The translations under genes were made by a program, and so were the position numbers. A stretch of 32,000 nt of DNA from Thermoproteus tenax Kra 1 (GTDB taxonomy: Archaea > Thermoproteota > Thermoprotei > Thermoproteales > Thermoproteaceae): the NCBI RefSeq assembly GCF_000253055.1, contig NC_016070.1, positions 1,809,543 to 1,841,542 of the forward strand. The letters run 5' to 3'. The notes beneath the pieces were generated by a model. The model was not told the origin of the DNA. It saw nothing but the letters and a program-made list of their open reading frames with translations, and did not search any database. Shown here piece after piece: positions 1 to 31,960 of the stretch (the stretch's first letter is position 1; the number at the start of each line of letters is the position of its first letter).

Positions 1-1605
1 AACGAAGTCGTACTCAAGATATCGGATCCCTACAGATATCCGGCCCAGATATCTATAAACGGAGAGTCTGCCGCCGTCATAGCTCCTGCCCGTCCCTTCG
101 TCGTAAATAAGACCGCCGATCTGTCTGTAGTGGTGGTGCCTTATTCGCAACAAGCAGCGTTGATTGTGGATGTTGAAAGCGCCGACTATCTGGGGAACCC
201 CGTCTCATACTCGTTCACAGTACCTCTGTCTGTGGCCCAGCCGCCGCCAGCCACTCTGAGCATGGTTCCGTCGACTTTGTATATAGGCCGGGCCAACAAT
301 GTGACCATAGAAATCTCCGTGCCCTTCAGAGCCAACGGCACCGCCGTCGTCACGCTGTCCGGCGCCTCCTCGGCCGAGTCCCCCCTCGTAGTGCCCATAG
401 CGGGCGGAGTCGGCATAGCACACGCGCAGATCACGCCGTTGCAGTCGCCTGTGGTTCTTCAGGCCGTAGTCTATTATTCGGTCATGGGCTTTCAACAGAG
501 CGCGCAGATTTCGGCCGAGGTGAACGCGATTCAACCGCAGACGCCGCTCGCCTCGCTCTACATCGCGCCGCAGATGCTAGTGGAGAATTCGCCGAACAAT
601 TTGACTATAGTAATCAGAGCCGATGGGCCTTTCAACTCCTCGGTCACGATCTCCGGAGCCTCCGCCGAGGTACCCATGCCCATATATATCTCGGGCGTGG
701 GCTATGCCGCATATTCACTAGTGGTCTACCCGACGTCGCCGCAAGTTGTTGTCACAGCCACAATACAGACGCGCGGCGGCACTCAACAATACACGGCGTA
801 TCTGCCCGCATCGTCGTCGAACGCGTTGTTGGTAGTGCCGACGCCCAGTCTAATCCCTGCGGGCGGCAACAGGACTGTATACATCAAGCTGATAAATCAG
901 GGGAACATCCCGGTGGAGCGCGGCGTTTTAGTCGTGGGGCCCGCCGCCGGCTCTCCGGCCCTGGGCAAGGTGGGCGTCTTCAGCTTCGGAGAGCTGGCGC
1001 CGGGCGAGTACTTAGACGTGCCTCTATCGTTTCTGGCGCCGGCTACCGCAAGCGGGCCTCTGCCGTTCCAATACACCATCTACTACTATACGCCCGCCGG
1101 CTCTGGCGTTGAACAAGGCAGCTTCTTCGTGCAAGTCTACCAACGCCCCTCAGTCCAAGTTCTGACCACCTCGGTCGTGCCCCAGACTCCTCAAGCCGGC
1201 TCGCCGCTCTTTATATCGCTCACTTTAGTGAACAACGGATACGAGACCGTTAACAACCTTGAGGTCGCGGCAGTGGCGCCAGAAGGGCTGACTCCGATGA
1301 CTCCTACGTTGAACTACGTCGGAAGCCTATCCCCCCAGCAGACTCAAGCCGTCACCTTTTCATTCAACGCCACGAGGCCCGGCGTCTACAACTTGAGCTT
1401 GGTGGTCGCCTATCAAGATCAATACGGGGCCTCCTACAACCTGACGGTGCCGCTCCACATCATCGTCGCCAGTGGCGCCGTAGCAACTACACAACAGTCT
1501 GGACAGCCCCACGGCGGCGCCGCCCTCGCCCCCATCTCGCTTGTCCTCGTCGTTGTCGTTGCCGCGGCCCTAATGGCCATAGGGATATGGCGGAGGAGGA
1601 GATAA
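1..1605 (+). CDS. Cell-surface glycoprotein (S-layer/CARDB-like repeats), 5'-partial, with C-terminal TM anchor
   Basis: Frame 1 has no stop from nt 1, so the gene starts upstream of the window and the listed GTG at 130 is probably internal. It has internally duplicated ~105-aa modules (NNVTIEISVP...TLSGASSAESP versus NNLTIVIRAD...TISGASAEVP). CARDB-like strands are present (YIKLINQGNIPVERGVLVV; ISLTLVNNGYETVNNLEV), along with many N-x-S/T sequons. The C-terminus is a hydrophobic helix followed by WRRRR. Confidence 0.6.
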   Translation, partial: NEVVLKISDPYRYPAQISINGESAAVIAPARPFVVNKTADLSVVVVPYSQQAALIVDVESADYLGNPVSYSFTVPLSVAQPPPATLSMVPSTLYIGRANNVTIEISVPFRANGTAVVTLSGASSAESPLVVPIAGGVGIAHAQITPLQSPVVLQAVVYYSVMGFQQSAQISAEVNAIQPQTPLASLYIAPQMLVENSPNNLTIVIRADGPFNSSVTISGASAEVPMPIYISGVGYAAYSLVVYPTSPQVVVTATIQTRGGTQQYTAYLPASSSNALLVVPTPSLIPAGGNRTVYIKLINQGNIPVERGVLVVGPAAGSPALGKVGVFSFGELAPGEYLDVPLSFLAPATASGPLPFQYTIYYYTPAGSGVEQGSFFVQVYQRPSVQVLTTSVVPQTPQAGSPLFISLTLVNNGYETVNNLEVAAVAPEGLTPMTPTLNYVGSLSPQQTQAVTFSFNATRPGVYNLSLVVAYQDQYGASYNLTVPLHIIVASGAVATTQQSGQPHGGAALAPISLVLVVVVAAALMAIGIWRRRR

Positions 1606-2255
1606 GAGTTGTCGATGTATACAAGAACTATGGACCATACCCGGCGTTGAGAGGCATCACCTACTCGATACCCAAGGGCATTTTTCAATGCATAGTGGGC
1701 CCCTCGGGCAGCGGGAAGACCACGTTGCTCCACATCATTGGGGGCATTGACAGACCGACCAAGGGGGAGGTCTGGGTGGCTGGGACTAGGCTGAACGATC
1801 TAAGCGATGACGAGCTGGCTGAGTTCAGAAACAGGAATGTGGGCTTCGTATTTCAATTATTTTATCTCGTCCCGCGCATGAGCGTGTTGGAGAACGTTGA
1901 ACTGCCCTTGGTGCTCCGCCGCATTCCCAAGGAGGAAAGGCGGAGGATGGCCCTCGAGGCGCTCAAGTTGGTGGGACTGGACGGAGTGGATCCCCGCAAG
2001 AGGCCGACTCAGTTATCAGGCGGCGAGCAACAGCGCGTGGCGATAGCGCGCGCCATAGTGGCCAGGCCCAGAGTGCTTCTTGCCGATGAGCCTACCGGCA
2101 ATCTAGATAGCGAGACGGCCGCCCGGATAATGGAGACCTTCCTCTCCCTCAAGAGGGAGCTCGGGGTAACCATAGTCATGGTGACGCACAATTTAGAGCT
2201 GTTGAAGTACTGCGATAGAACCGTGAGAATAAGAGATGGAAAGATAGTGGAATAG
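1587..2255 (+). CDS. ABC transporter ATP-binding protein (MacB/LolD-like)
   Basis: Walker A GPSGSGKTT, Q-loop, ABC signature LSGGEQQRVAIARA, Walker B LLADEPTGNLD, and an H-loop (VTHN). It overlaps the upstream gene by 19 nt. Confidence 0.9.
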   Translation: MAEEEIRVVDVYKNYGPYPALRGITYSIPKGIFQCIVGPSGSGKTTLLHIIGGIDRPTKGEVWVAGTRLNDLSDDELAEFRNRNVGFVFQLFYLVPRMSVLENVELPLVLRRIPKEERRRMALEALKLVGLDGVDPRKRPTQLSGGEQQRVAIARAIVARPRVLLADEPTGNLDSETAARIMETFLSLKRELGVTIVMVTHNLELLKYCDRTVRIRDGKIVE

Positions 2256-2310
2256 TCAGCACTCGGCAAAACTCTTCACGCCTCCGAGAGGTTCCCACTC
2301 ATCATACTCG
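2251..2310 (-). ncRNA. Candidate C/D box sRNA
   Basis: The minus strand reads cgagt-ATGATGA-GTGGGAACCTCT-CGGA-GGC-GTGAAGA-GTTTTGCCGAGTG-CTGA. This gives a perfect C box, a 12-nt guide, D' with one mismatch, a 3-nt spacer, C' with one mismatch, a 13-nt guide, and a perfect D box. A TATA-like TTAATATA (plus 2324-2331) lies about 20 nt upstream. The D box abuts the ABC gene stop codon on the opposite strand. Confidence 0.55.
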
Positions 2311-2386
2311 GCCGTTGGCCGACTATATTAAGCTTGTCGGCGGCCTCACGACATGCTTAATAGCGTTTAAATAGATCGATCTAGAT

Positions 2387-3127
2387 ATGACAGTGTTTCG
2401 TATCCTCGATAGATATAGCAGACAGATAGCGGTGATAGGGGAGGAGGGCCAACGCAAGATAAGGAGCACGTCTGTTGTGGTCTTCGGAGTAGGCGGCCTC
2501 GGCTCCCATGTGTCCTACTATCTGGCCGCCGGCGGCTTCCGGAGGCTGTATTTAGTAGACTCAGATAGAGTGGCGGTTTCAGACCTACATAGACAAGTCC
2601 TATACTCAACCAAGGACGTGGGCGTGGAGAAGGCAGTCGCCGCAGCCTCCAGGCTTGAGCAAGTGAACCCTGAGGTTGATGTGGTACCCATATCTGAGGA
2701 AATAACCCCGAGCCTTGCCGAAGAGCTCGTAAAGAAGTCCGATATAGCCGTGGACGCGTTGGACAACTGGCCGAGCAGACACGTCGTCAACAAGGCCGCC
2801 GTGAGTGCGAGGAAGCCCCTCGTGCACGGCGCCGTGCAGGAGTGGTATGGGCATATCACAACCATAGTGCCTGGCATCACGCCGTGTCTTGAGGAGCTCT
2901 TCGGGAGGTTCAAATCCTTGCCGGCGTGTGCGCAGGCAGGATGCCCTGTGTTGGGGCCCGTGGTGGGGACCGTCGCCGCGATCATGGCGGTAGAGGTCTT
3001 CCGTGCGGCGTTGGGCGCACCATCTCTGGCAGGTAAACTGTTGATTGTAGATCTGAAGCATATGGCCTTCGACATGATACAACTGCAAAGGGACGAGAAT
3101 TGCCCTGTCTGCCGCTATGTCCGTTGA
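2387..3127 (+). CDS. ThiF/MoeB/UbaA-type E1-like adenylyltransferase
   Basis: Rossmann motif VVVFGVGGLGSHVSYYLAAGG, followed by LVDSDRVAVSDLHRQ, which is typical of ThiF/MoeB. C-terminal CPVC. Length 246 aa. Confidence 0.8.
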   Translation: MTVFRILDRYSRQIAVIGEEGQRKIRSTSVVVFGVGGLGSHVSYYLAAGGFRRLYLVDSDRVAVSDLHRQVLYSTKDVGVEKAVAAASRLEQVNPEVDVVPISEEITPSLAEELVKKSDIAVDALDNWPSRHVVNKAAVSARKPLVHGAVQEWYGHITTIVPGITPCLEELFGRFKSLPACAQAGCPVLGPVVGTVAAIMAVEVFRAALGAPSLAGKLLIVDLKHMAFDMIQLQRDENCPVCRYVR

Positions 3128-3848
3128 CAGATTAACTCCGGCGCAGAGGCTGGTGCTCTACTACATGGCCTTCGAGGCGTTGTACAACGGAAGAGTCTGG
3201 CTGACTTTCGACGATATCAAGCAGGGCACTGGGCTGTCAGCGCGGGCTCTGAGGAGCGCGTTAGTCAAACTCAGGGAGATGGGCTATATAAACAGCGTTA
3301 TCGATCCCCTCAGAGGAAGGAGGCACCTCCACAAAGTACTCCTAGATAGGCTGTATCCCATGCCTGAGCTCAAAGGAGTTTTCTTGATAGACGGCAGCGC
3401 GGATCTGACGCCGGAGGCCATAAAAATTTTGTCGAACGCGGACATTGTCTTATACACAGACTCAGTGGATCCGAAAAGGTTGGAGGGATACGCTAGAGCG
3501 CTGAAGCGGTTCGACGGCAGAGTGCCCGAGGCCGGCCTAGTCGCCATAGTCTTCAATCCGTTGTTAGACCTCGAGCGGCTCCGCGACGTTGTCGGTAGGG
3601 CTAGGTACATATGTGCCTCCAATTCGGTCGACAAAGCTCTAGGCTCATGTTTGGCTTGCGGCATCGTCGACGTTGACTACGGGAAGTTTAGAATTAAGAC
3701 GATCGCCGACGAGAGGGAACTAGACGAGTTGGTCAAACGCTACGACGTAAGAGGCACTATCATGCTGCAGACGTGCGACGGAAAGAGGTACGAGCTTGTG
3801 GTTCTCTCAAGGCGCGATAAAGCGGCCGGAGCTCCACCTCGGAGTTAA
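3117..3848 (+). CDS. Hypothetical protein: N-terminal winged-helix domain plus C-terminal domain of unknown function
   Basis: It overlaps the ThiF-like gene by 11 nt, so the two are probably translationally coupled. A wHTH-like segment is present ([25 protein letters not shown]). The segment [28 protein letters not shown] loosely resembles the N-terminal motif of tetrapyrrole-type methylases but lacks the glycine-rich loop. Confidence 0.5.
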
Positions 3849-3851
3849 AAG

Positions 3852-3861
3852 AATTTAAAAA
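3852..3861 (+). promoter_or_regulatory. TATA box for aIF5A
   Basis: AATTTAAAAA is centred about 24 nt upstream of the ATG at 3881, consistent with a leaderless transcript. Confidence 0.5.
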
Positions 3862-3880
3862 CCGGGTTGTCTCCCTCCCT

Positions 3881-4279
3881 ATGAGCACGAAGTATGTAGA
3901 GGTGGGCGATCTCAAGGAGGGATCCTACATAGTCATCGACGGCGAGCCCTGTAGAGTCGTTGAGATAGAGAAGTCGAAGACGGGTAAACACGGCTCTGCT
4001 AAAGCCCGAGTAGTCGCCGTGGGGCTCTTCGATAACGTGAAGAGGACTCTCAGCGTCCCTGTGGATACACAAGTCGAGGTGCCGATAATAGAGAAGTTCA
4101 CAGCCCAAGTCCTCGCTATATCTGGCGATGTGATACAACTCATGGATATGCGCGACTACAAGACGTTCGAGGTTCCGATGAAATACGTTGAGGACGAGGC
4201 CAAGGGCAAATTGACCGCCGGGGTCGAAGTGGAGGTCTGGCAGATATTGGACCGGTATAAGATAACGAGGGTCAAATAG
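3881..4279 (+). CDS. eif5a: Translation initiation factor 5A (aIF5A)
   Basis: Hypusine-site motif [14 protein letters not shown], 132 aa, OB-fold C-terminal half. Confidence 0.95.
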
Positions 4280-4856
4280 TCTCTTGGGGCGGAGGCGAGG
4301 CGAAGAGGTAATACGGATCTTTCTCTTGGATCTCGGAGAGTATTCTGTTTACTACCAGTTCGATTGGATCAACGCCTAACCTCTGCCTTATATCCTCGAA
4401 GCTTTGGAAGGGCCTCTTCTTTCTTTCGGCCAATATCTCCTGTAGCTTCTTCTTGCCTATCCCGTGGAGCAGCTCGAAGGAGTGCATCTTAAGCGTGATG
4501 GGACCTGCCTTATTGAACCAATCGACGAACTTCTGCTCGCGGCTCGCCACTATCTGTCTAACCAACTGTGGAAGGAGCTCTCTCGCCGGCGGCTGTAGAT
4601 CCTCATATCTGATCCTTCTTACTATCTTGTCGACTTTATCCCTCTGGCCTGCGCCTACATAGACTCTCTCCCCCAGCTCGACCTTAACCCCCGGCTTAAG
4701 AGTCACCTCCAACAGAGTGAAGTACTCCTCGCCCAACAGATGGGCGAAAGTGGAATCCCTTGGGAACTCCCTCCTCACTTTGGCCGGCAACTTATATGCG
4801 GCTAGCTCGGGGGGCAGTACGTCTAATACATAGGCATACTCCTCCCTCCTCCTCAT
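4272..4856 (-). CDS. DUF655/COG1491-type predicted RNA-binding protein (HhH)
   Basis: It sits in the conserved archaeal neighbourhood downstream of Rpo4/F with a 4-nt overlap. A helix-hairpin-helix-like segment is present ([18 protein letters not shown]). Confidence 0.65.
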
Positions 4857-5194
4857 GACTTGATAATCTTCAACATCTCCTTGATTTCGTCGTCGGAGAA
4901 CTCCCTCCGCTCCAACATCTGAAGCAACATTTTGAGTTCCTCTACGTCCTCGGGCAGTATGTTGACCAACTGGATGGCTGTCACTCTGGCGAAGCCGAAC
5001 CTGGATATAAGCTCCTCCACCTTAGACTCGGCGGCGTTTGCGTCTATTGCAGTGACTTTCTCGAGGAAGTCTATAGTCTTTCGTTGCACCTCGGTCGTCT
5101 CATAGGACTGGGAGAAGGCGCGGAGTATGTCGAGAGCTTTGGCGTTGGTTATGTCCTCAGATTTACGTATCTTCTTAACGCTCACGTATAGCAA
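4853..5194 (-). CDS. rpoF: RNA polymerase subunit Rpo4 (RpoF)
   Basis: About 110-aa helical acidic protein in the classic L21e / RpoF / DUF655 neighbourhood. The listed TTG start at 5194 is only ~16 nt from the TATA box, so the GTG at 5185 may be the real start. Confidence 0.6.
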   Translation of the reverse strand: MLYVSVKKIRKSEDITNAKALDILRAFSQSYETTEVQRKTIDFLEKVTAIDANAAESKVEELISRFGFARVTAIQLVNILPEDVEELKMLLQMLERREFSDDEIKEMLKIIKS

Positions 5195-5204
5195 CTAATG
5201 GGGG

Positions 5205-5214
5205 AATTTAAATA
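5205..5214 (-). promoter_or_regulatory. TATA box for the rpoF operon
   Basis: AATTTAAATA lies in the 88-nt divergent intergenic region. Confidence 0.45.
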
Positions 5215-5255
5215 TCGCCTTGATGCCCTCGGCATAGCCCCCGGTCGGGGCAAAA

Positions 5256-5267
5256 CTTAAATAAAGG
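5256..5267 (+). promoter_or_regulatory. TATA box for rpl21e
   Basis: CTTAAATAAAGG is centred about 22 nt upstream of the ATG at 5283. Confidence 0.45.
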
Positions 5268-5282
5268 CGTCACCGAGGGGCC

Positions 5283-5579
5283 ATGCCCAAGCGCACTCAC
5301 GGATATAGGTACAAGAGCAGAAAGTTGCTGTCGAAGGGGCCTAGGGAGAGGGGTCCTGGCGGACTATCTAGGTTGATGTATGAATACAAGGAGGGAGATA
5401 GAGTGGTGATAGATATAGACCCTACCTATATAACAAATGCTCCCCACAGAAGATATCAGGGACGCGTGGGGCTCGTCGTTGGAAGACAGGGGGCGGCCTA
5501 CATAGTTTTAGTCGAGGTGGGATCCAAGGTCAAGAAGTTGGTGGTCCCGCCCGAGCATCTAGTGCCCTTTAGGGGCTAG
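5283..5579 (+). CDS. rpl21e: 50S ribosomal protein L21e
   Basis: N-terminus MPKRTHGYRYKSRKLL and an SH3-like body, 98 aa. Confidence 0.9.
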   Translation: MPKRTHGYRYKSRKLLSKGPRERGPGGLSRLMYEYKEGDRVVIDIDPTYITNAPHRRYQGRVGLVVGRQGAAYIVLVEVGSKVKKLVVPPEHLVPFRG

Positions 5580-6325
5580 GGAGGGAGCTGTTGATCCTCT
5601 CCGCCTGTATAGTGGAGTTGTATGGCATAGTAGAGCCTATCGATGCCCGTGCCACTGAGCGCCGACACAAACACTGCGTCTCCGAGGCCCCCCGCTGCCG
5701 AGACCGCCTTGATGATATCTCGTTCCAACGAGCCCAACTGTAGAGAGTCTGCCAACATCTCAGCATCGCTGATCCAGTCGTTTATCCTCTCTATTTGTTC
5801 CTCGCCCAATAAATCCATTTTATTGACTGCGAATATCTGCGGTAACTTGAACCTTATCCTCGCCGATATGGCCAACAGCGCAGTGCTTGCAAAGCCCTCT
5901 GGCGTCTGCATGTATGTTCCATCGCCTACGTACACGACCACATTGTGGGTGTCGGAGAGCCTCCTCACGAGGTAGGGGCCGCTCTCTCTAAAGGCGAACA
6001 GCTCCATTTGGCCTGGAGTATCCACTAATACCACCGGGGCGCCTACCGCGTTTATCTCCTCCTTTATTCTCTCGCCCTCGGCCACAGCCATGTCGATCGA
6101 GGCGATGATGGAGGCGTTGGGGCCCAACTTGAACTGTCTCATAATCTTCCGGGCGTTTATCTTGTCGCGTATATCTACGTCGGGCACATATGGGAGATAC
6201 TCGGCTGCTGGGTCTAGATTTACCACAGCTACATCGTACCCTTGTTCGTCCATCCAGTTATAGAGCGCCGATACTAATGTCGACTTTCCGCTCCCCGCGG
6301 TCCCTATAAAGAAGACCATTAACAT
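5576..6325 (-). CDS. GPN-loop GTPase
   Basis: P-loop GTAGSGKST, the diagnostic GPN motif (KLGPNASI), DTPGQMELF switch II, and NKMD. Confidence 0.9.
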   Translation of the reverse strand: MLMVFFIGTAGSGKSTLVSALYNWMDEQGYDVAVVNLDPAAEYLPYVPDVDIRDKINARKIMRQFKLGPNASIIASIDMAVAEGERIKEEINAVGAPVVLVDTPGQMELFAFRESGPYLVRRLSDTHNVVVYVGDGTYMQTPEGFASTALLAISARIRFKLPQIFAVNKMDLLGEEQIERINDWISDAEMLADSLQLGSLERDIIKAVSAAGGLGDAVFVSALSGTGIDRLYYAIQLHYTGGEDQQLPP

Positions 6326-6612
6326 TACCTCCTCAGATTCGCGATCTCTCTGGCAACTCTTCTAGCTAGCTCCCTTATATCCTCGGCGTAGACGACGAAG
6401 TAGCCCTGACCTCTCTCGTCGTACCACAAGGCGGGGTATTTCTTGTCTTTGTACGCCTCAAATTTTACGTTCAAGCGCTCTAGAGCTTTGGCCACCTCCT
6501 CGAACGTAGGTCGCGGCACGGCAGAGTCCCTTGGGATTATTCTACCGAGCGAGCGAGGGACCGTTGAGTCTATATATACGAGCCAGAATATCCTCCCCTC
6601 CTTTCTCCTCAT
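6325..6612 (-). CDS. srp19: Signal recognition particle protein SRP19
   Basis: 95 aa. The pattern IFWLVYIDSTVPRSLGRIIPRDSAV...KKYP is typical of archaeal SRP19. Its stop overlaps the GPN gene start as TAATG. Confidence 0.8.
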   Translation of the reverse strand: MRRKEGRIFWLVYIDSTVPRSLGRIIPRDSAVPRPTFEEVAKALERLNVKFEAYKDKKYPALWYDERGQGYFVVYAEDIRELARRVAREIANLRR

Positions 6613-7007
6613 TCAACGAGTACTGCGTTGATAACTCCGTGTTGGCCCGGTCTCGAGACTACTACGGCTCTGCCCACCTCCGTCTGAATTATAGCGCCCT
6701 TAACTATCTGGTTCTTCTTGGCGAAGTCAGGGTTGGCGGGAGTTGAGACGACAGAGACTATCTTGGCTTTGACCATCCTCTTCTCCTTAGGTATATAGAC
6801 GTTGGCATACTGGGCCGACTTAAGTCTGATCTTCATATTGCCCCCGGCGACTCTCTCCACTTGGATCTGCTGGGGACCCACCTCTGGCACTTTCGGCGGG
6901 CCGCCACAGAGGGCCTTGCGCTTCACCTTGGCCACTCTCCCCTTGACGCCGCCGCTGGGCTTTCTTAGATCATTGCCCTGATAGTAAGCCGCCGATTTCA
7001 CAAGCAC
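6609..7007 (-). CDS. rps8e: 30S ribosomal protein S8e
   Basis: YQGNDLRKPSGGVKGR...KRK motif, 132 aa. A TATA-like AAAATTTTTAAC lies ~30 nt upstream. Confidence 0.85.
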   Translation of the reverse strand: MLVKSAAYYQGNDLRKPSGGVKGRVAKVKRKALCGGPPKVPEVGPQQIQVERVAGGNMKIRLKSAQYANVYIPKEKRMVKAKIVSVVSTPANPDFAKKNQIVKGAIIQTEVGRAVVVSRPGQHGVINAVLVE

Positions 7008-7056
7008 CCGATAAGACCAAGTTAAAAATTTTGAGCCAATGCGTCCGATAAAGACG

Positions 7057-7959
7057 CTATATCGAGATCTCTATATAGAGTCTCTTGCCCAACTCATTTA
7101 AAAGCTCTCTGATAGGAGTCTCCGTGGACTCCGCCGCCCTTGCCACATCCTTCTGAGTCACTTCCAGACCGGCTATGAAACAGGCATAATAGACGGCTAC
7201 GGCCGCCAAGGCCTGCGGCTTCCTGCCGTTCCTTATACGCGGCGACGACATGATATATTTCAAGAGATCCGAGGCTATCTTCTGGACCTGCGCAGCGATC
7301 TCTCCGTCGAGTTTCAACGCCGAGACTATGCGCGGCAAGTAGACTCTCGGGTCAACTCTGGGAACTTTCTCTCCAAGTTTGGACATATATTTTAGAAACT
7401 CCATGTAGGCCGACATAAACCGGCTTCTGTCCAGACCCGCCTTCTCTATCAGAGATCTGTAGGTCACTGCGCCCAGCCCATGGCGCTTCACTGCGAAGTA
7501 GAGCGCTGCGGCATATCCCTCCCTCCTCGACGCTTTATAGCCGGCGTCGTACGCCTTTCTATATAGCGCAATGGCCTCGTCTACAAGCGCCCTCGGTATT
7601 CCCAAAATATGTCTCAGCGATTCGTAGAACTCCCTCATCTCCGCCTCCAACCTCTCCGAGGGAGAGGGGATAGGCTTGACTGCCTCCCTGAGCTTAATGG
7701 CGCGGAGTTTGTCGCTCAGCTTGGGCTTGCCCACTTTAATATCGCCTAGCTCGGTGCCAGATGTGCCAACGAAGGCGCGGGACGACTCAGGCCTCCTCCA
7801 CTCAGGGCCTAGATCCACTACGTTCTCCCTAATTACGGCGCCGCACTCTGTACAGACTATAGAGCCTCTCTCGTCATCTATCTTTACCTTATTTACGGCG
7901 CCGCACACCGGGCATATTAGATCCTGCTCTGCCAAATCGGCTAGTATTCGCCTAGTCAT
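7057..7959 (-). CDS. tfb: Transcription initiation factor TFB
   Basis: N-terminal Zn ribbon CPVCG...CTECG, a B-reader/linker, and two cyclin-fold repeats. 300 aa. Confidence 0.95.
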   Translation of the reverse strand: MTRRILADLAEQDLICPVCGAVNKVKIDDERGSIVCTECGAVIRENVVDLGPEWRRPESSRAFVGTSGTELGDIKVGKPKLSDKLRAIKLREAVKPIPSPSERLEAEMREFYESLRHILGIPRALVDEAIALYRKAYDAGYKASRREGYAAALYFAVKRHGLGAVTYRSLIEKAGLDRSRFMSAYMEFLKYMSKLGEKVPRVDPRVYLPRIVSALKLDGEIAAQVQKIASDLLKYIMSSPRIRNGRKPQALAAVAVYYACFIAGLEVTQKDVARAAESTETPIRELLNELGKRLYIEISI

Positions 7960-8105
7960 TTTCTCCTACCTCTTTTGGCTACGTCGCTCTCCTTTACATA
8001 TATACTTTGTCCCAACAGCGATTGGTCTATTGAGACCGGCCTCACTAGGCCGTAAGGGCTGTCTACTCTCCCGATTACGTCATAGATTGTGCCGACCCTC
8101 TTCAT
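7956..8105 (-). CDS. gar1: H/ACA RNP component Gar1 (short form; internal start preferred over the listed ORF start at 8210)
   Basis: MKRVGTIYDVIGRVDSPYGLVRP matches the Gar1 core pattern. It sits in the conserved Gar1-TFB position with a 4-nt overlap. A TATA box TTATATATTCC (plus 8122-8132) lies ~22 nt upstream of the ATG at 8105. The 35 codons upstream of that look non-coding. Confidence 0.65.
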   Translation of the reverse strand: MKRVGTIYDVIGRVDSPYGLVRPVSIDQSLLGQSIYVKESDVAKRGRRK

Positions 8106-8396
8106 AGAGTAAGTGTATACTGGAATATATAATGGGGGGACTGTAGATAATTTTACAACCAGATTCTTTAGATTAGTATAATGGTGAGCAATACCAATAC
8201 GTCTGAGCATAGTGTCTATAGCCGCGCGTTTATTAAAGGTTCCCCCCTAATTGTGATATCTTCTGTGTTATCCATCCTCCGCAGAACCACGACGTACGCC
8301 CTCCTTTATAACCGAAGGCCTCGCCCTTAGGGCGGGGAGTGCGGGTCATGCCGCTAGGATCCCCTTAGATATTTTTATTAATGGTCAATTGACTCC

Positions 8397-8846
8397 GTGG
8401 GCGAGGAAGTCGCTAATGAGGACGAGACTCTGACGGAGATTGAAATACAGATACTCCAGGGCATCGAACGCCTCGGCGGAAGCTATCAACAGAGGAATCT
8501 ATGGAAGTACATAGGCATTGATAGTAAGACAGGTTTGCCCATATTGAGCAGGCTTGAGAAGAGAGGTTTGATAAAAAAGGAGAGAGTTGGAGGCGAGAGG
8601 AGGGGGGTCTACGTGATCAAGCTCACGGAGAAAGCGTATAAACTGCTGTCTGAGCTAAGGGAGAAGGCCGAGGAGGGCGGTGGTCCCGCCGTTGAGAGAC
8701 TCAGCGAGGAGCTCAGAATTCTCCTCTCGATACCGTGTACCGTCTGTCCCTATATAGATCGGTGTGGCTTCGGCTTCATAGACCCCTTACATTGTGACCT
8801 ATTAACAAGGTGGTCTCTGTCGCTACAAAATGAGCGAGCCTATTAG
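8397..8846 (+). CDS. Winged-helix protein with C-terminal 4-Cys cluster (TFE-beta/RPC34-like candidate)
   Basis: A wH segment (ILSRLEKRGLIKKERVGGERRGVYVIKLTEKA), then a charged linker, then C-x2-C-x5-C-x10-C (CTVCPYIDRCGFGFIDPLHC). A TATA box ATTTTTATTAAT at 8371-8382 precedes the GTG start. Confidence 0.5.
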   Translation: MGEEVANEDETLTEIEIQILQGIERLGGSYQQRNLWKYIGIDSKTGLPILSRLEKRGLIKKERVGGERRGVYVIKLTEKAYKLLSELREKAEEGGGPAVERLSEELRILLSIPCTVCPYIDRCGFGFIDPLHCDLLTRWSLSLQNERAY

Positions 8847-26080: not shown

Positions 26081-26083
26081 AAT

Positions 26084-26260
26084 GCCCCCTTAGCGGCGCC
26101 CGGCCCTCTCCCGGGGGCCGGGGCCCGCCCCGGAGCCGCCTTTCGGCAACCCCAGGGCGAGGGGGACGCGACCGTGCCCCGGCGCACGGGCGCGACGTTC
26201 GGCCGCGTCCCCAGAGCCGGGAATGTGGTTCATGCGAGAGGAAAACTTACGAGGTTAAAA
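26084..26260 (-). ncRNA. Candidate TnpB guide-scaffold RNA (omega/reRNA) and right end of the IS element
   Basis: A very GC-rich, stem-dense stretch lies immediately 3' of, and overlapping, the tnpB stop codon (26247-26249). Stems visible by eye are:
- 26162-26170 with 26204-26212 (9 bp);
- 26172-26177 with 26184-26189 (6 bp);
- 26101-26106 with 26115-26120 (6 bp);
- 26246-26250 with 26261-26265 (5 bp).
It has no credible ORF. Boundaries are approximate. Confidence 0.5.
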
Positions 26261-27503
26261 GTAAGATGGCCGCCGGGACGGAGGAAAAAGCGGGTTGTTT
26301 TATCTTTTCTATCAATTCCCAGTACCTCCTCTTGGCCCACAACAACGGGATGTTGTCGCGCGCATCGCTGAAGCCACAGACGGGACAGCGCATTATACGT
26401 TTCTTCTCCTCCTCCATTTTCGCACCACAGTGGGGGCATACAGTTGAGTATAGTCGCTCTTCAAGGTACGGTAGCCCATACCACTCTGCCAAGTGTTGTA
26501 GGCGCCTCCTCAGCCGGCCGAGACCGTCGTAGAGGTGCTTCTTGTCGCCTTTCTCGCCGCTCTGTTTCCGCTCTAGATACGTCTCGTAGTCCATCACGTC
26601 TACTACAATGGCGGCGTTGTTCTGTCTGGCGAGCTCGATTATCTCCTTTGCGATCCGTGTCACGACGTCGCGGATTTTCCTAAACCGCTTGGACTTGAGA
26701 CGACGGACCCTCTCCTCAAGGAGCATCCTTCTGGCGGGATCCGCCTCCCTCGCGGCCCGTTCCTCGAGGCGGCTTATCTCCTCGTGGAGTCTCCTCAACT
26801 CCCTAATTACACCATCTTCAGGGAGTCTCAACGTCCTTCTCAACTTACCATCCCTTATAATGCCTATCACGGCCCCGTTATCGAGACGGTTCACGTCAAC
26901 AGCGACGAGCGTCCTGGGCTCCACCGGCGTCACCTCTCTGGCGAAGACAAGCGCTACGTAGAGCTTTCCGTAGGTCGGCTCCTTTCCCCTACGTCTTTCT
27001 ATGCCCAAAAACGCCAACTTGAGTCTGGCGCCCTCCTCAAGTCTCTTTTTGATCCAAGTGACGTTGTTGCGCCCCAATCTAACGACGAAGGTCTTTAGTC
27101 TCCGCACCTTGAGGATCTCGCTTCTGAGATCAATAAAGATAGGAGCACCAAAATCTCTTTCGTTTTCCACTCTTAGTTGAGCCTTTAATGGAACCATCTT
27201 GAAGAATACGATATCGTGCCAGAACACCTTGGCTTGGTCTATGAAGTACTTCTTGAGGTTATACTTGGGAAACACCTCCTCGATTATTTTATGCGCCAGC
27301 TCCCGCCTGTCGGGAGTGAGAAGTCTGCCCAGCTCCTCCGGCGTCAGTTTCGGCTCCTCTTGTCCTGTGATTTCTTTGAGCAACCTTCTGACATACTCTT
27401 CTGTGGCCAGATGTATGCGCGTCACTAGATCCAGAACGTCTGGCCGCTCCTCGACGAGACGCCAGGGAATTTCGATCTTCAGCACTCTATAGACCTGGCC
27501 CAT
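26247..27503 (-). CDS. tnpB: TnpB (IS200/IS605-family OrfB, RuvC-like RNA-guided nuclease family)
   Basis: RuvC-I-like VAVDVN. C-terminal zinc finger CPHCG-x14-CPVCG followed by DARDN (RuvC-III-like). The usual RuvC-II Glu position reads IVVDVMDYE. The ATG at 27503 (MGQVYRVLKIEIPW) is preferred; the listed 35-codon extension covers the structured 5' module. Confidence 0.8.
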   Translation of the reverse strand: MGQVYRVLKIEIPWRLVEERPDVLDLVTRIHLATEEYVRRLLKEITGQEEPKLTPEELGRLLTPDRRELAHKIIEEVFPKYNLKKYFIDQAKVFWHDIVFFKMVPLKAQLRVENERDFGAPIFIDLRSEILKVRRLKTFVVRLGRNNVTWIKKRLEEGARLKLAFLGIERRRGKEPTYGKLYVALVFAREVTPVEPRTLVAVDVNRLDNGAVIGIIRDGKLRRTLRLPEDGVIRELRRLHEEISRLEERAAREADPARRMLLEERVRRLKSKRFRKIRDVVTRIAKEIIELARQNNAAIVVDVMDYETYLERKQSGEKGDKKHLYDGLGRLRRRLQHLAEWYGLPYLEERLYSTVCPHCGAKMEEEKKRIMRCPVCGFSDARDNIPLLWAKRRYWELIEKIKQPAFSSVPAAILLLTS

Positions 27504-27565
27504 ATGCGTACAAGGCGTAGGGGAGAAAAAGTAGTTGAAGAGACTCTCTTTCAACTCCAACGACC

Positions 27566-27598
27566 CACCTGACTTACGGCGCCGCTGTAAGTCAGGTG
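27566..27598. repeat. Perfect 12-bp hairpin (subterminal palindrome)
   Basis: CACCTGACTTAC - GGCGCCGCT - GTAAGTCAGGTG. Related copies occur at 31843-31877 and, degenerate, at 31772-31802. Confidence 0.9.
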
Positions 27599-27600
27599 AA

Positions 27601-27629
27601 CGTTTCAATTACTCTGGGATTTCTACTCC
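27601..27629 (-). repeat. CRISPR-repeat-like motif at the element terminus
   Basis: The minus strand reads GGAGTAGAAATCCCAGAGTAATTGAAACG. Its 3' end ATTGAAAC resembles the 8-nt crRNA 5' tag of crenarchaeal type I/III repeats. Related copies lie at 31744-31768 (plus) and 31810-31834 (inverted). Confidence 0.5.
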
Positions 27630-27993
27630 TTCGACTTACCAACCGGCCCACGTCGCCGGCCGCCTCAGCAATGGGCGCAACCTCCTCCAGAAGCGCCTCC
27701 GGCGCGTCTCCTCGATGTATGCTAACACTGAGAGGAGGGAAAGCAGATACACGACCATGAGCTAGAGAGACCAGAACATAAAAAACGAGACGTTTCACAT
27801 CAGTTCAACTTTATAACGCTTCTCGCGAGCCCGACCGTCCGTCGAACAGTCGTTGACGATGAGGACCTCTTTGATCCCGACGGCAGAAGAGCTCGGGCAT
27901 GTTCTCAGCCTCGTTGAGAGTGGGGACTATGATCGACACGTAGCCCCAAGGATGAATGAGAAAAAATGGATGATGAAAAAGATTCTGTTTCAA
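27630..27993 (-). pseudogene. Family-2 glycosyltransferase fragment, frameshifted and truncated
   Basis: VSIIVPTLNEAENMPELF is the GT2 N-terminal motif. After ELF the homologous continuation (AVGIKEVLIVNDCSTDG) is in another frame and stops at KVELM. A third frame carries further GT2-like sequence (GDAPEALLEEV...GDVGRLVSR), which ends where the IS-end motif begins. Confidence 0.65.
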
Positions 27994-27996
27994 AAA

Positions 27997-28377
27997 CTAT
28001 TTGGCCGCGAAGACGAGCAACGAGCTCCCCATCGGCTCGACCACACAGTTCCCCACTAGGTACATCTGCCCGTTCTGCAACGGCACCATGGCCGCGTTCA
28101 TATATCCGTATTCATCATCGCCTCCCGAGGACATGCTACTGTAGCTCGACATAGAGACGCCGCTTCCGCCCGAGAGCTTGACGGCGGAGATGTAGTATTT
28201 GCCATTATTCTGATATATAGGCAGATTCGCACACTGCTGGGCTATTGCCACCTCCCGTGTGCCATATTCCGCTGTGTTCTGCTGCGCTTGTTGCATCATG
28301 GCGCCTGTCGTGTATATAGTGACGATTATGACCATGGCCATTGCTATTATCAGTGCTGCTGTCACCGCCCAGTACAT
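27997..28377 (-). CDS. Small secreted/membrane-anchored hypothetical protein
   Basis: N-terminal TM helix (AVTAALIIAMAMVIIVTIY), then a Q-, S- and G-rich extracellular part. Confidence 0.5.
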   Translation of the reverse strand: MYWAVTAALIIAMAMVIIVTIYTTGAMMQQAQQNTAEYGTREVAIAQQCANLPIYQNNGKYYISAVKLSGGSGVSMSSYSSMSSGGDDEYGYMNAAMVPLQNGQMYLVGNCVVEPMGSSLLVFAAK

Positions 28378-28404: not shown

Positions 28405-28839
28405 TTAGAGGTATTGTCTGGTGGCGTACCAGGCCAGAACCGATGACGGTATAGAGAGCGCGAACAAATATCTATTGACGACCGCAAGGAACAACCATAT
28501 GATCAGCGAAACGGCGTAGAGGGCGGCCGAGACCGCCAGCATCCACGACCGCTCCCGCCATGCGAGATAGGCGGTGAAGCCCACGAGCGGGGCGGCGTAT
28601 GCGGCTACAAACAACGCCAATGCGACCGCGGGCACCGAATAGCCCGCCCCTAGGAGCACAAAGAAGAGTACCGCCGTGATTACGGCGATCCGCTCCCTCG
28701 ACTCGAACGCGATTAGGACTATTCCAGCGAACTGAAGACCAAAGGAGACAGTGCCGAGCGCGAGGTTTAGACCATGAACAGGGATCCATCTGACTGCCAA
28801 CAACGCGCTTGCTATTGCGATGAGCAGATAGCCCAACAT
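28405..28839 (-). CDS. Polytopic membrane protein (about 5 TM), hypothetical
   Basis: The internal ATG at 28839 (MLGYLLIAIASALL) is preferred because the listed start at 28947 would overlap the upstream gene by 82 nt. The protein is hydrophobic throughout. Confidence 0.5.
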   Translation of the reverse strand: MLGYLLIAIASALLAVRWIPVHGLNLALGTVSFGLQFAGIVLIAFESRERIAVITAVLFFVLLGAGYSVPAVALALFVAAYAAPLVGFTAYLAWRERSWMLAVSAALYAVSLIIWLFLAVVNRYLFALSIPSSVLAWYATRQYL

Positions 28840-28865
28840 GACAAGAGGTTCGTGGGGACGAAAAG

Positions 28866-29936
28866 CTAGCTGACCTCGATTGTATAGGTGTCCAGGGGAC
28901 ACTCCTCTCTCTCGGAGCTCTCCCTCTCTCCCGGCCTCGGCTCCCATATAATGTTCTTTTCGTAGTAGCCCAATATGACGAAGGTGTAGAGGCCGGGCCT
29001 CTGCGCTTTGAACGGCACGTCGACGTCGATGAGCCAGAAGGCCCCGTTCTTCCCCTCAGGATAGATCGTAAACGTCGCAATCGGCGTGCCCCAATCGTAG
29101 TGGTGTAATTTCACGTAGCTGCTGTTGGGCGCGTAGTAGAATACAACGACATAGTAGGTGGATCCAAAGGTGTCGTTGACGTAGCCCTCGGCGGTGAAGC
29201 GGCTTCCGTTGTAGGTCGGCGGCTTTATCCAGCGGACCCATTTGGACACCATGTAGATCGTCAGAAAGACCTTCGAGCTGTTGTACGCAAGGCCGATGGA
29301 GACGTAGTTGTTGCAGGGGTTCAACAGGGAGATACGGTGCCCCCAATGTGATCCAGAGTCGTTGTAGACCATCGCGTTTATCGCCCAACTGATGAAGCCC
29401 GTGACGTTGATGTGGCATCCGTAACGTTGGAGGAGATAGATGGATCCCCCGCATCCCATCGCGGCAATGTTTTCCCCTACGGCGTACTTTCCGCCGTCAA
29501 GCAATGTGTAGTAGTAGGTGGGCTCTCTGCCCTCTGCGTCGTAGTGGCTGTATATGCCGGTCTTCAACATATACTCGGCGCGGAACTGCGGAGTCTTCAG
29601 AGGCATCCACTGGACGGGCGGGACGCCCTCCCTCTCCCTGACCTCGTTGAGGTAGTCCAGGGCGAACTTCTGTAACGGAGTGAGGGTCACGTTGTAGGTC
29701 TCCTCGGGAGGCACGGGCGGCAGAGTACGGATGTGAATGGACGAAAGAGTGGCGTTGAGGTACGTGAAGAGGCGTTGGAGCGCGCTCTGGACTGCCCCCT
29801 CCAGTTGGGTTGCGTTGACGCGGATCGCGTTAAGCCCCTCCTGGGCGACCTCCCAGGCTGTGTGCAACGCCGGCCTTGCGTAGAGGAGGAGAAGGACGGC
29901 GAGTAAGGCCGTGAGGGCCAACGCGAGCCGTCTCAC
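28866..29936 (-). CDS. Secreted CAP/SCP (PR-1-like) domain protein with extra C-terminal beta-rich domain
   Basis: Signal/anchor MRRLALALTALLAVLLLLY. CAP-like pattern LDYLNEVREREGVPPVQW...YSHY...GENIA...WGHRISLLNP...VSIGLAY. TATA box at 29955-29964, ~24 nt upstream of the GTG start. Confidence 0.6.
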   Translation of the reverse strand: MRRLALALTALLAVLLLLYARPALHTAWEVAQEGLNAIRVNATQLEGAVQSALQRLFTYLNATLSSIHIRTLPPVPPEETYNVTLTPLQKFALDYLNEVREREGVPPVQWMPLKTPQFRAEYMLKTGIYSHYDAEGREPTYYYTLLDGGKYAVGENIAAMGCGGSIYLLQRYGCHINVTGFISWAINAMVYNDSGSHWGHRISLLNPCNNYVSIGLAYNSSKVFLTIYMVSKWVRWIKPPTYNGSRFTAEGYVNDTFGSTYYVVVFYYAPNSSYVKLHHYDWGTPIATFTIYPEGKNGAFWLIDVDVPFKAQRPGLYTFVILGYYEKNIIWEPRPGERESSEREECPLDTYTIEVS

Positions 29937-30105
29937 ATATATAGAAAGGAGGGGATTTAAAAACTGAGAAAAAAGGGGGAGTTTTTACTACCGTTTACCT
30001 AGGAAATACTCTGCCCCTAAAACCGCCGCCACCTCCACCTCCGCTACTGCCACCGCCGCCGTTGGATCCAGTTCCGCCAGATGATGTAGATCCGCCACTT
30101 CCACT

Positions 30106-30603
30106 TCAGCCTGGTCCATATGTACTTTGAGAGGACCAACTAACATATACCACATTGTATCCACTCCATTCTGTTGGAGGCGTTATAGAACATTCCAGAG
30201 TGGGCGGACATGAAACGTATGTCGTTATCGCGCTAATGCTTGACGCCTCTATCGTCACGGAATACGCATTTGGCGGTGGCCATGGAGTGAGCTCGCTCCC
30301 CGTTCCCGAAACGCATTGCGACGCATCCGAACATATTTTCCATGTGACCTCATCGCCGTAGGGAAGTGGATTACCATCGGGGGGATATTGTACGACATAT
30401 ATGGTATACGTGTTATAGGTAATCTGTGACGTCTGTTGTGTACACGTTATTGTGAACGTATAGATATTGCCCACACTCACCTGTTGTGTACTCGGCGATA
30501 TCGTACACGAGTAACCTGACGGCTCGCCCGTTATTTTCGCATAGAGCGTATCTTGGGATCCGCCGATTTGAAGCTGATACTGTCCGGAGCCGGTGCCCGG
30601 CAA
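30106..30603 (-). CDS. Surface-protein segment (repeat b remainder plus Cys-rich C-terminal domain); likely part of a larger interrupted gene
   Basis: The ORF as listed starts at a TTG inside a repeat unit. It is in frame with ORF 30625..31506 and separated from it by a single TAA. Confidence 0.45.
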   Translation of the reverse strand: MPGTGSGQYQLQIGGSQDTLYAKITGEPSGYSCTISPSTQQVSVGNIYTFTITCTQQTSQITYNTYTIYVVQYPPDGNPLPYGDEVTWKICSDASQCVSGTGSELTPWPPPNAYSVTIEASSISAITTYVSCPPTLECSITPPTEWSGYNVVYVSWSSQSTYGPG

Positions 30604-30984
30604 CGTCTGAACACTGGATTGAATTTACCAGCTCACTTGCGAGATCACGCTCTGACTCACAGGATCGTTGTTGGGGACTACGTTGATGGTCACGTAGTAG
30701 TTATTACCGCCGCTTTGTTGTGTGCACGTTATTGTAAACGTATAGCTGTTGCCTGCGGTCACCTGTTGTTGAGTCGGCGATATTTGACACGAGTAGCCGG
30801 ACGGAGGTAGAACTATTGACGCTTTCAGAGTGTCCGTTTGTCCATTAATCTGTATTTGACCAGTATATGGGCCGGTGCCCGTTAATGCTTGAACGCCGGA
30901 TTGAACACTCCAACCTACTTGGCCGGCGACGCTCTGGGTTGTAGGATTATTATTGGGCACTATGTTGATGGTTATGTAGTATTT
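30421..30984 (-). repeat. Tandem 282-nt (94-aa) coding repeat, two units
   Basis: Unit a (30703-30984) encodes KYYITINIVPNN...SGYSCQISPTQQQVTAGNSYTFTITCTQQ. Unit b (30421-30702) encodes NYYVTINVVPNN...SGYSCTISPSTQQVSVGNIYTFTITCTQQ. Unit b contains the TAA. Confidence 0.85.
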
Positions 30985-31506
30985 CTGAGTAGGCGGCGGA
31001 TTGCTGCCATTGTTCGATCCGGTCGAAGAACCTCCGCCGTTGTTGTTCACACCTCCACCATTGTTGTTACTACCGACGTTGCCACCATTATTATTACTTC
31101 CTCCACTACCAGTGTTAGAGCCGCCGCTTGGCGCAAACTGCGCCAAGCTCACCGTGTAGAACTCAACGCGTTCCTCGATTATCTTCTCCACAACGTTCGG
31201 ATCCGTCGCAAAGTTCTTGTCGTTGGGGACGTAGTTGTCTATGATAGTGTAAACCCTCTGGACGTCGGCCGGGACGTAGCAATTGATCACAACGTACTCG
31301 TTGGGTTTCAATAACCTACCGGGATCGAAGTAGTAGTTGGGAGTCGCGTTGAGGCAGTAGACCTGCCCCGATGGGCCTTCGAGGATCACAGACTTGAGCA
31401 CTATCGGTACATCGCCTGTATTCAACACTACTACCTCGTTCTGCCCGCTCACGACGACGTACGCTTGCGCCCACTCCATCGACCATATGAGCTGTCTGTG
31501 CGCCAT
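30625..31506 (-). CDS. Surface-protein segment (pilin-like globular domain, N/G/S linker, repeat a and part of repeat b); likely part of a larger interrupted gene
   Basis: The ORF as listed has no signal peptide of its own. The matching class III signal peptide is encoded in the same frame just upstream, beyond a TAA. Confidence 0.5.
   Translation of the reverse strand: MAHRQLIWSMEWAQAYVVVSGQNEVVVLNTGDVPIVLKSVILEGPSGQVYCLNATPNYYFDPGRLLKPNEYVVINCYVPADVQRVYTIIDNYVPNDKNFATDPNVVEKIIEERVEFYTVSLAQFAPSGGSNTGSGGSNNNGGNVGSNNNGGGVNNNGGGSSTGSNNGSNPPPTQKYYITINIVPNNNPTTQSVAGQVGWSVQSGVQALTGTGPYTGQIQINGQTDTLKASIVLPPSGYSCQISPTQQQVTAGNSYTFTITCTQQSGGNNYYVTINVVPNNDPVSQSVISQVSW
30994..31131 (-). repeat. Low-complexity N/G/S-rich linker
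   Basis: Encodes SGGSNTGSGGSNNNGGNVGSNNNGGGVNNNGGGSSTGSNNGSN. Confidence 0.85.
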
Positions 31507-31743
31507 GATCTGTTACGACCACCATATTGCCCCAGCTAGGAGGGCGCCCGCCAACGCGAGAAGCAACAACGTGGCGATGGTCGACTCCACCGCGACGCTT
31601 ATCCCGCGTACGCGGGGTTTGGGCATGCCATTGCCGACTTACGAAAAGAAATGTGAGCAGCCTCAGTCGTCCCTTCCAGGGAAGGAACGGTCAGTGTTCC
31701 GACATCATGGCGAACAGCGGGCGTGTGGCGGAGAGAAACGAAA

Positions 31744-31895
31744 CGGAAATTTCCTTGGAGAGTTGAAACGTTCACCTGACTTTCAGCGATGCGTAAAAGT
31801 CAGATTAACGATTCAACTCCTTGGGATTTCTACTCTAACGACACACCTGACTTTCGGGCGCCGCCGTAAGTCAGGTGAGGCGTGGGAGTTGAAAG
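31744..31895 (+). repeat. Hairpin-rich 5' module of the second tnpB element
   Basis: In order, the module contains:
- GGAAATTTCCTTGGAGAGTTGAAAC (31744-31768);
- a degenerate hairpin (31775-31782 with 31795-31802);
- an inverted repeat-like copy ATTCAACTCCTTGGGATTTCTACTC (31810-31834);
- a hairpin (31843-31877);
- GGAGTTGAAAG (31885-31895).
It is homologous to 27534-27629 read on the minus strand. Confidence 0.8.
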
Positions 31896-31960
31896 TGTAT
31901 CTCCTTAACCAGCTTTTCTTTTCCCGCGCTATATATGTTTATAAGCTAAGTCTATGGGCA

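Follow-up and report, generated by a model that had tools for sequence, protein, structure and literature searches.

A 32,000-nucleotide stretch of the Thermoproteus tenax Kra 1 chromosome (contig NC_016070.1 of assembly GCF_000253055.1, positions 1,809,543 to 1,841,542; the whole stretch is referred to here as the window, and positions are counted from its first letter) carries on its minus strand a reading frame for a pilin-like surface protein that is broken by three in-frame stop codons. The frame is best read as an ordinary young pseudogene, inactivated recently and not subject to recoding, and a probability of about 0.8 is given to this reading. The locus holds a single gene that purifying selection maintained over most of its past. 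Its stops are not ancestral, and an insertion sequence (IS) has remodelled the surroundings. The evidence further points to a recent date for the inactivation, to loss of function and to a former role of the protein as an adhesin.

Translation of the minus strand from 31626 to 29980 reproduced exactly the frame and the stop positions given in the original prediction, which had been made from the sequence alone. From the ATG at 31626 to the final TAA at 29995-29997 there are only three internal stops, a TAA at 31513-31515 (stop 1), a TAA at 30625-30627 (stop 2) and a TGA at 30106-30108 (stop 3), against 34 and 22 in the remaining two frames of the same strand, and the frame is kept over 543 codons without a frameshift. 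The anatomy that had been proposed was also correct, with a class III-type signal peptide, a beta-rich domain, a linker, two repeats, a Cys domain and a Gly/Ser-rich tail, the limits of which are listed in Table 1.

That these parts once formed a single gene, as had been suggested, is supported by the existence of an intact orthologue, P0001, a protein of 907 aa encoded at locus L001 (Logan contig DRR667334_131), which is the sole full-length relative found. The two proteins have the same N-terminus (MPKPRG/I..ESTIATLL..WWS) and head domain, which together are 64% identical, and they share one homologous repeat unit, the four-Cys domain and the Gly/Ser-rich tail; P0001 differs in that it is unbroken and has a greater length, with additional domains and linkers rich in Thr. 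As the homology covers segments 1, 2 and 3 of the broken frame, the locus is, by this comparison, one former gene and not a chance run of open reading frames (ORFs). The genes downstream of P0001 in L001 match those of the window as well, encoding a CAP-like protein and two small membrane proteins.

The stops themselves are not shared. At stop 1, L001 reads TCG TAC AAC CAA CAG ATT ATG and Kra 1 reads TCG TAA CAG ATC ATG (at the protein level, WWSYNQQIMAERQL in P0001 and WWS*QIMAHRQL in the window); the stop aligns with the CAA of L001 and therefore corresponds to a Gln codon. The earlier remark that no frameshifts are present holds for the frame, yet a 6-nt length difference from the orthologue lies directly beside this stop. 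Stop 1 could have arisen from CAA to TAA by a C-to-T change accompanied by a 2-codon deletion or, as a second route read from the aligned codons, in one step by a 6-nt deletion (C-AAC-CA) joining TA to A. If the latter is what happened, an indel did occur and merely stayed in frame.

Stop 2 had been placed inside repeat b, at a position where unit a has Ser, and this was borne out. It stands directly after an invariant Trp, with 25 residues of the ~85-residue unit before it, and the nine alignable homologous units all have a sense codon at this position, for Q (three units), E (two), A (two), V or S. It would probably have been produced by a change of CAA to TAA. Stop 3 follows the Cys domain, of which the four Cys and their flanking motifs are shared with P0001. 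Since the tail of P0001 continues beyond this domain, for ~170 Gly/Ser-rich residues, the TGA is probably premature. The 36-codon tail that follows it in Kra 1 is also open in one further frame, and any resemblance it has is one of composition only, which makes stop 3 the least certain of the "internal" stops. The Kra 1 frame would accordingly have acquired two or three premature stops. As judged from these alignments the stops are not ancestral; an orthologue comparison had been proposed as a check, and the sense codon CAA at stop 1, together with the lack of conservation of the stops, argues against recoding.

The gene was nevertheless under constraint for a long time. The ratio of non-synonymous to synonymous divergence (dN/dS) from L001 is 0.26 before stop 1 and 0.20 after it, in comparison with 0.245 for the intact neighbouring CAP-like gene; the synonymous divergence (dS) exceeds 1 and is saturated, and these ratios reflect a long functional history, at a resolution too coarse for a recent change. 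The two repeat units align without gaps over 94 aa each, with 65% nucleotide identity and a dN/dS (omega) of 0.30, and from this pattern they are old duplicates that were kept under selection.

The absence of frameshifts had been the main argument of the original prediction for an anomaly, and its weight can be estimated. The reconstructed gene contains 39 CAA/CAG and 10 TGG codons, and a stop is created by 4.3% of the possible single-base changes and, among C>T/G>A changes alone, by 6.9%. With an indel:substitution ratio of 0.05-0.2 and ~80% of indels causing a frameshift, values that were assumed and not measured, the probability that a given disrupting event is a nonsense change is ~0.2-0.5, and the chance that all events are nonsense is ~0.01-0.14 for three of three and ~0.05-0.27 for two of two. 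The pattern that had been pointed out is real, but a nonsense-only gene, with chances of ~0.01-0.27, is mildly unusual and demands no special mechanism. Ordinary prokaryotic pseudogenes with in-frame stops have the same features as the Kra 1 gene, namely stops that are absent from orthologues, an accessory locus disrupted by IS and no flag in the annotation; the Kra 1 gene differs from them in having nonsense lesions only, a pattern met a little less often than a mixture of lesion types.

Several special mechanisms were nevertheless considered. Reassignment of a codon was rejected, as TGA, TAG and TAA all terminate normal genes of this window, most of them housekeeping genes (10, 9 and 8 genes, respectively), and the same combinations of stop and following nucleotides end ordinary genes there (TGA-AGT twice, TAA-A and TAA-C). 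Insertion of selenocysteine (Sec) or pyrrolysine (Pyl) was rejected because two of the stops are UAA, no structure lies downstream and the Thermoproteales are not known to have the machinery for it; in the 100 nt from each stop no fold was better than in shuffled controls (z = -0.46, +0.82 and +0.12). According to a review, the only readthrough demonstrated in Archaea is that of UGA by Sec and of UAG by Pyl (PMC8211752). Scans of the window for tRNA genes and Rfam matches gave none, and the T. tenax genome paper describes 46 tRNAs, termed a full complement, and one tRNA pseudogene, with no suppressor tRNA reported. Phase variation was rejected as well: the sequence around each stop is unique (TCG TAA CAG, TGG TAA ATT and GGC TGA AGT), neither homopolymers nor short tandem repeats occur at any of the three, and the stops are changes of base and not of length.

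Whether the stops might still be read through, by programmed or by leaky near-cognate decoding, such that some full-length surface protein is made, was weighed separately and is considered highly improbable. The frame that stays intact over 543 codons and the conserved motif close to the promoter would fit such decoding, and low-level translation of stop-containing pseudogenes is among the findings of a Salmonella study (PMC9122581). It would, however, require that two kinds of stop codon be suppressed, in three contexts unrelated to one another, although the identical codons and contexts terminate normal genes in the window, the orthologue and the homologous repeats lack these stops, there is no structure downstream, no suppressor tRNA is reported and UAA readthrough is not known from Archaea; moreover, three leaky events in series would give a vanishing yield. 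Of the three options raised originally, very recent inactivation alone fits the evidence; phase variation has no repeat tract to act through, and recoding is countered by non-conserved stops in normal contexts without structure.

It is likewise considered very unlikely that the stops are real but tolerated, with leaky UAA/UAA/UGA readthrough at ~86 degrees C still yielding a little full-length or nearly full-length pilin-anchored adhesin, or that selection fixed them in succession. In the selected case the benefit might lie in escape from a pilus-binding virus or in the removal of a toxic product without a signal peptide. Stops that were tolerated or selected would explain why the lesions are nonsense only, without a frameshift. 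Should peptides spanning the stops exist and the stops be confirmed, this would be the first archaeal UAA/UGA readthrough outside Sec and Pyl; the present evidence gives it no positive support.

On the favoured reading as a recently inactivated pseudogene, the ancestral surface protein of ~540 aa comprised a pilin-like signal and helix, an all-beta head, a flexible linker, two Ig-like repeats, a disulfide-type Cys domain and a Gly/Ser tail. Ribosomes would now terminate at the first TAA, after 37 codons, and no full-length protein would be expected; a product restarted at the ATG 6 nt past stop 1 would be without a signal peptide.

This restart is central to another explanation, in which the gene now gives several useful products: a 37-aa pilin-helix peptide, a 293-aa protein from the ATG at 31506 and a C-terminal fragment. 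The position of that ATG, 6 nt downstream of stop 1, would allow termination-reinitiation, the 293-aa ORF is annotated as a protein both by the authors of the genome and by RefSeq, and the upstream promoter-proximal motif is conserved. The 293-aa product would, however, be without a signal peptide, which domains of its extracellular type require, and would end in the middle of a repeat, 25 residues in, after the invariant Trp. For the third piece a TTG inside the same domain is the sole start, and this piece is absent from the protein collection; in the orthologue and in the relatives of the repeat family, moreover, the protein is a single polypeptide. Separate functional products are consequently held to be unlikely, and the stricter case of three independent genes was rejected since stop 2 cuts a folded domain in two.

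The stops could also be artefacts of sequencing or cloning, with the gene intact in the living strain, for instance if mutant clones of a toxic and thinly covered region had been selected in E. coli. The T. tenax assembly was built from plasmid clones sequenced by the Sanger method at 8x, and the sequence otherwise appears intact; pseudogenes with internal stops are often assembly artefacts where coverage is low (PMC11017572). The stated error rate for this assembly is <0.4e-4, from which ~0.07 errors would be expected in 1.6 kb, and three base errors in one gene that each create a stop are extremely unlikely unless no more than one or two clones covered this place. The neighbouring remnant of a GT2 glycosyltransferase gene and the IS also show that real decay has taken place at the locus. 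An artefact is, on this balance, quite unlikely.

Several points weigh against the view that the gene is simply a recently inactivated pseudogene. Two or three nonsense codons without a frameshift are a mildly surprising outcome of neutral decay; otherwise the sequence looks well kept, and neither the conserved repeat motifs nor any of the Cys have been lost; the relative shares the promoter-proximal motif, so that transcription of the gene may continue; there is no close relative by which to date the stops, and dS to the sole orthologue is saturated (>1), beyond the range in which relaxed selection could be gauged; and RefSeq lists the 293-aa middle segment as an ordinary protein. The upstream motif is 17 nt long, ACATTTC(TT/GC)TTCGTAA(G/C), and is common to window positions 31638-31654 and L001 1344-1360, where overall DNA identity is just ~68%. 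It is a candidate promoter element of this pilin-like gene family.

Table 1. Parts of the broken pilin-like gene and features of the surrounding locus (positions in the window).
Feature	Position	Strand	Evidence and remarks
Promoter-proximal motif ACATTTCTTTTCGTAAG	31638-31654	-	12-28 nt upstream of the ATG; counterpart at the orthologous locus ACATTTCGCTTCGTAAC; side-by-side reading
Segment 1, 37 codons and TAA	31513-31626	-	Aligns to P0001 residues 1-35; ends at stop 1
N-terminal all-beta globular (head) domain, aa 39-166	31129-31512	-	P0001 match; weak NCBIfam UpsA match
Asn/Gly/Ser low-complexity linker, aa 167-214	30985-31128	-	Translation
Repeat unit a, 94 aa, intact beta-sandwich, aa 215-308	30703-30984	-	Repeat families D1/D2, spacing 282; predicted local distance difference test (pLDDT) 70-89
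Repeat unit b, 94 aa, aa 309-402	30421-30702	-	26th codon is stop 2, which follows the invariant Trp directly
C-terminal domain with four conserved Cys (YNTYTI..W.ICSD..CV.GTG..SCP..CS)	30109-30420	-	Homologous to P0001 residues ~676-745
Stop 3 (TGA 30106-30108), 36 Gly/Ser-rich codons and final TAA (29995-29997)	29995-30108	-	Composition; P0001 tail
CAP/SCP-like secreted protein gene, intact	28866-29936	-	Syntenic; 58% identity to L001 4146-5168; dN/dS 0.245
Two small membrane-protein genes	28405-28947, 27997-28377	-	Syntenic with L001
GT2 glycosyltransferase N-terminal remnant	~27815-27938	-	VSIIVPTLNEAENMPELF / frameshift / IKEVLIVNDCSTDGR; cut off after ~50 codons beside the IS
TnpB-only IS200/IS605-like element	~26083-27650	-	ORF 26247-27608 matches Pfam Cas12f1-like TNB
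Partial copies of the IS palindromic 5'-end module, both orientations	31763-31919	.	CACCTGACTT...AAGTCAGGTG; non-coding, just upstream of the pilin-like gene

The assignment of the protein to the pilin-like type begins with segment 1 (MPKPRVRGISVAVESTIATLLLLALAGALLAGAIWWS), which starts MPKPRVRG/ISVAVESTIATLLLLALAGALLAGAIWWS. Read by eye, it has the class III-type signal layout (MPKPRVRG/ISVAVESTIATLLLLALAGALLAGAIWW), with a short basic N-region, an RG/IS motif and a hydrophobic helix of ~27 residues. The reconstructed N-terminal 169 aa matched the NCBIfam UpsA model over the whole profile (E=0.0027), with a score of 17.8 bits that is below the cut-off of 130; they matched no Pfam family at E<=1, and hence no Pfam pilin, and a sequence search of the PDB gave chance matches only. 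An AlphaFold model built from a 5-sequence alignment was all-beta, at low confidence (mean pLDDT 55.7), with the sandwich of repeat a better defined. In a Foldseek search with this low-confidence model generic Ig-like and adhesin folds were recovered, and the type IV pilin of Pyrobaculum calidifontis (8fk7_A) was matched weakly (E=0.037). The Gly/Ser-rich stretch behind stop 3 is probably the cut-off remnant of a tail that was once translated.

Archaeal type IV pilins such as UpsA of Sulfolobus and 8fk7 of P. calidifontis have the same basic N-region, RG/I motif, long hydrophobic helix and beta-rich domain. The T. tenax protein differs from them in being far larger, with ~370 extra residues of adhesin-like domains, and here in being broken by stops, and all of its profile matches lie under the curated cut-offs. 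Linkage to a type IV pilus ATPase is seen at L001, where a T2SSE/TadA-like ATPase is encoded 2 kb downstream; on the equivalent side of the window are the GT2 remnant and the TnpB element. No T. tenax orthologue of the L001 ATPase was present among the 5 matches listed when the 8000 candidates with the most shared words were scored. According to the genome paper, T. tenax has three type IV pilus operons elsewhere in its genome, and TTX_0979 is a candidate for the prepilin peptidase PibD. The ancestral protein is read here as a putative pilus-associated or pilin-anchored multi-domain adhesin.

The surroundings of the gene are consistent with a remodelled locus. A frameshifted GT2 pseudogene had been mentioned originally as a neighbour, and such a remnant is indeed present at ~27815-27938 on the minus strand. 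A strain with 99.6% identity (L002, SRR31758307, reached via the neighbouring PhoU gene) matches the window up to 26082, beyond which unrelated genes follow. The match ends exactly at the IS boundary (26082/26083), and that strain is without the stretch made up of the IS and the gene cluster at that junction, which is the one examined. For four annotated products of the cluster that were looked up, the CAP-like protein, the 293-aa segment and both small membrane proteins, no other assembly gave a relative of at least 90% identity; for the PhoU and MoxR genes on the flanks, such relatives exist. The cluster is accessory and IS-flanked in Kra 1, a setting in which the decay of a gene is expected.

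The TnpB element has a GC-rich right end and a palindromic 5' end. None of the five transposase ORFs given in the genome paper (TTX_0813, 0867, 1864, 1903 and 1904) is tagged near TTX_2115, and the element was probably left out of that list. Upstream of the pilin-like gene the IS-end module occurs in two or three partial copies, direct and inverted (CACCTGACTTnCGG...CCGTAAGTCAGGTG), with 80-96% identity to 27524-27608, and these may be solo IS ends, or remnants similar to miniature inverted-repeat transposable elements, that flank the 4-gene cluster. The 293-aa middle ORF corresponds to CCC82729.1 / WP_014127982.1, a "hypothetical protein", and TTX_2115 lies two genes downstream of it; no mention of TTX_2115-2118 was found in the literature.

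A separate TTTTTAAA box precedes the GTG start of the CAP-like gene by ~20 nt. The product of this gene scored 20.8 bits with the Pfam CAP model, for which the cut-off is 21.1 bits, and matched the SEC10/PgrA surface-exclusion model weakly (E=3.8e-6), below the cut-off. Identity to the L001 counterparts is 58% for the CAP-like protein and 48% and 37% for the products of the two small genes.

Across the window, the pilin-like gene is the only pair of long same-frame open stretches split by a single stop that is supported by homology. Two other such pairs, of at least 100 codons each, were found in alternative frames of the CAP-like gene and its downstream neighbour, without homology support. 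In the second frame at 28408-29829 on the minus strand, open stretches of 110, 146 and 216 codons are separated by single TGA codons, and these are most likely chance ORFs driven by GC content. This case illustrates that chance can yield long ORFs separated by stops in the Kra 1 genome.

The family proved to be very rare. Word-indexed protein searches, one of them with the whole conceptual protein, returned only P0001 at full length, P0002-P0004, which share the repeat unit only, and the gene's own fragment; these searches were inconsistent, each missing a match that the other gave, and absence from them is weak evidence. In an exhaustive HMMER search of 1.84 billion cluster representatives with the head domain, only the gene's own fragment and P0001 were recovered, the remaining matches being multi-stretch hits in giant repetitive proteins. 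An alignment scan of species-representative genome contigs with the head domain confirmed no locus, and did not return the source genome itself, so that the region is perhaps masked or missing in that collection; a scan of Joint Genome Institute (JGI) metagenome contigs confirmed nothing either. An exact-sequence look-up of the 293-aa ORF, for independent assemblies of the same strain, gave no contig.

P0002-P0004 come from JGI metagenomes and match Pfam DUF5979 weakly. They share with the T. tenax protein the unit of ~85 aa (YYVxV..W..SS....LQIGG.TDTL....GY.C.I.P....G..YTFTV.C), of which they have 3-4 copies in comparison with 2 in T. tenax, and they lack the head and Cys domains of the T. 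tenax protein and P0001. P0003 begins, like the T. tenax protein, with a class III-type signal (RTRG/ISSV).

The intact arrangement is represented by L001 (Logan DRR667334, 8729 bp), in which the cluster around the pilin-like adhesin occupies 223-8686. The genes encode, in order, a PMT_2 glycosyltransferase, the pilin-like protein, the CAP-like protein, the two small membrane proteins, a T2SSE ATPase of the TadA/VirB11/FlaI type and a 364-aa protein without a family match. The glycosyltransferase, the ATPase and a polytopic membrane protein encoded at L001 are all missing from the window. This cluster possibly represents a type IV pilus-like system of the Thermoproteaceae that has yet to be described.

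For the genome of T. tenax, these results call for a correction of the annotation: CCC82729.1 / WP_014127982.1, listed in RefSeq and GenBank as an ordinary hypothetical protein, is a piece of a broken gene for a pilin-like surface protein of ~540 aa. Beyond this strain, they identify a very rare family of pilin-anchored, multi-domain putative adhesins in the Thermoproteaceae, the intact form of which is linked to a Tad/FlaI-type ATPase.

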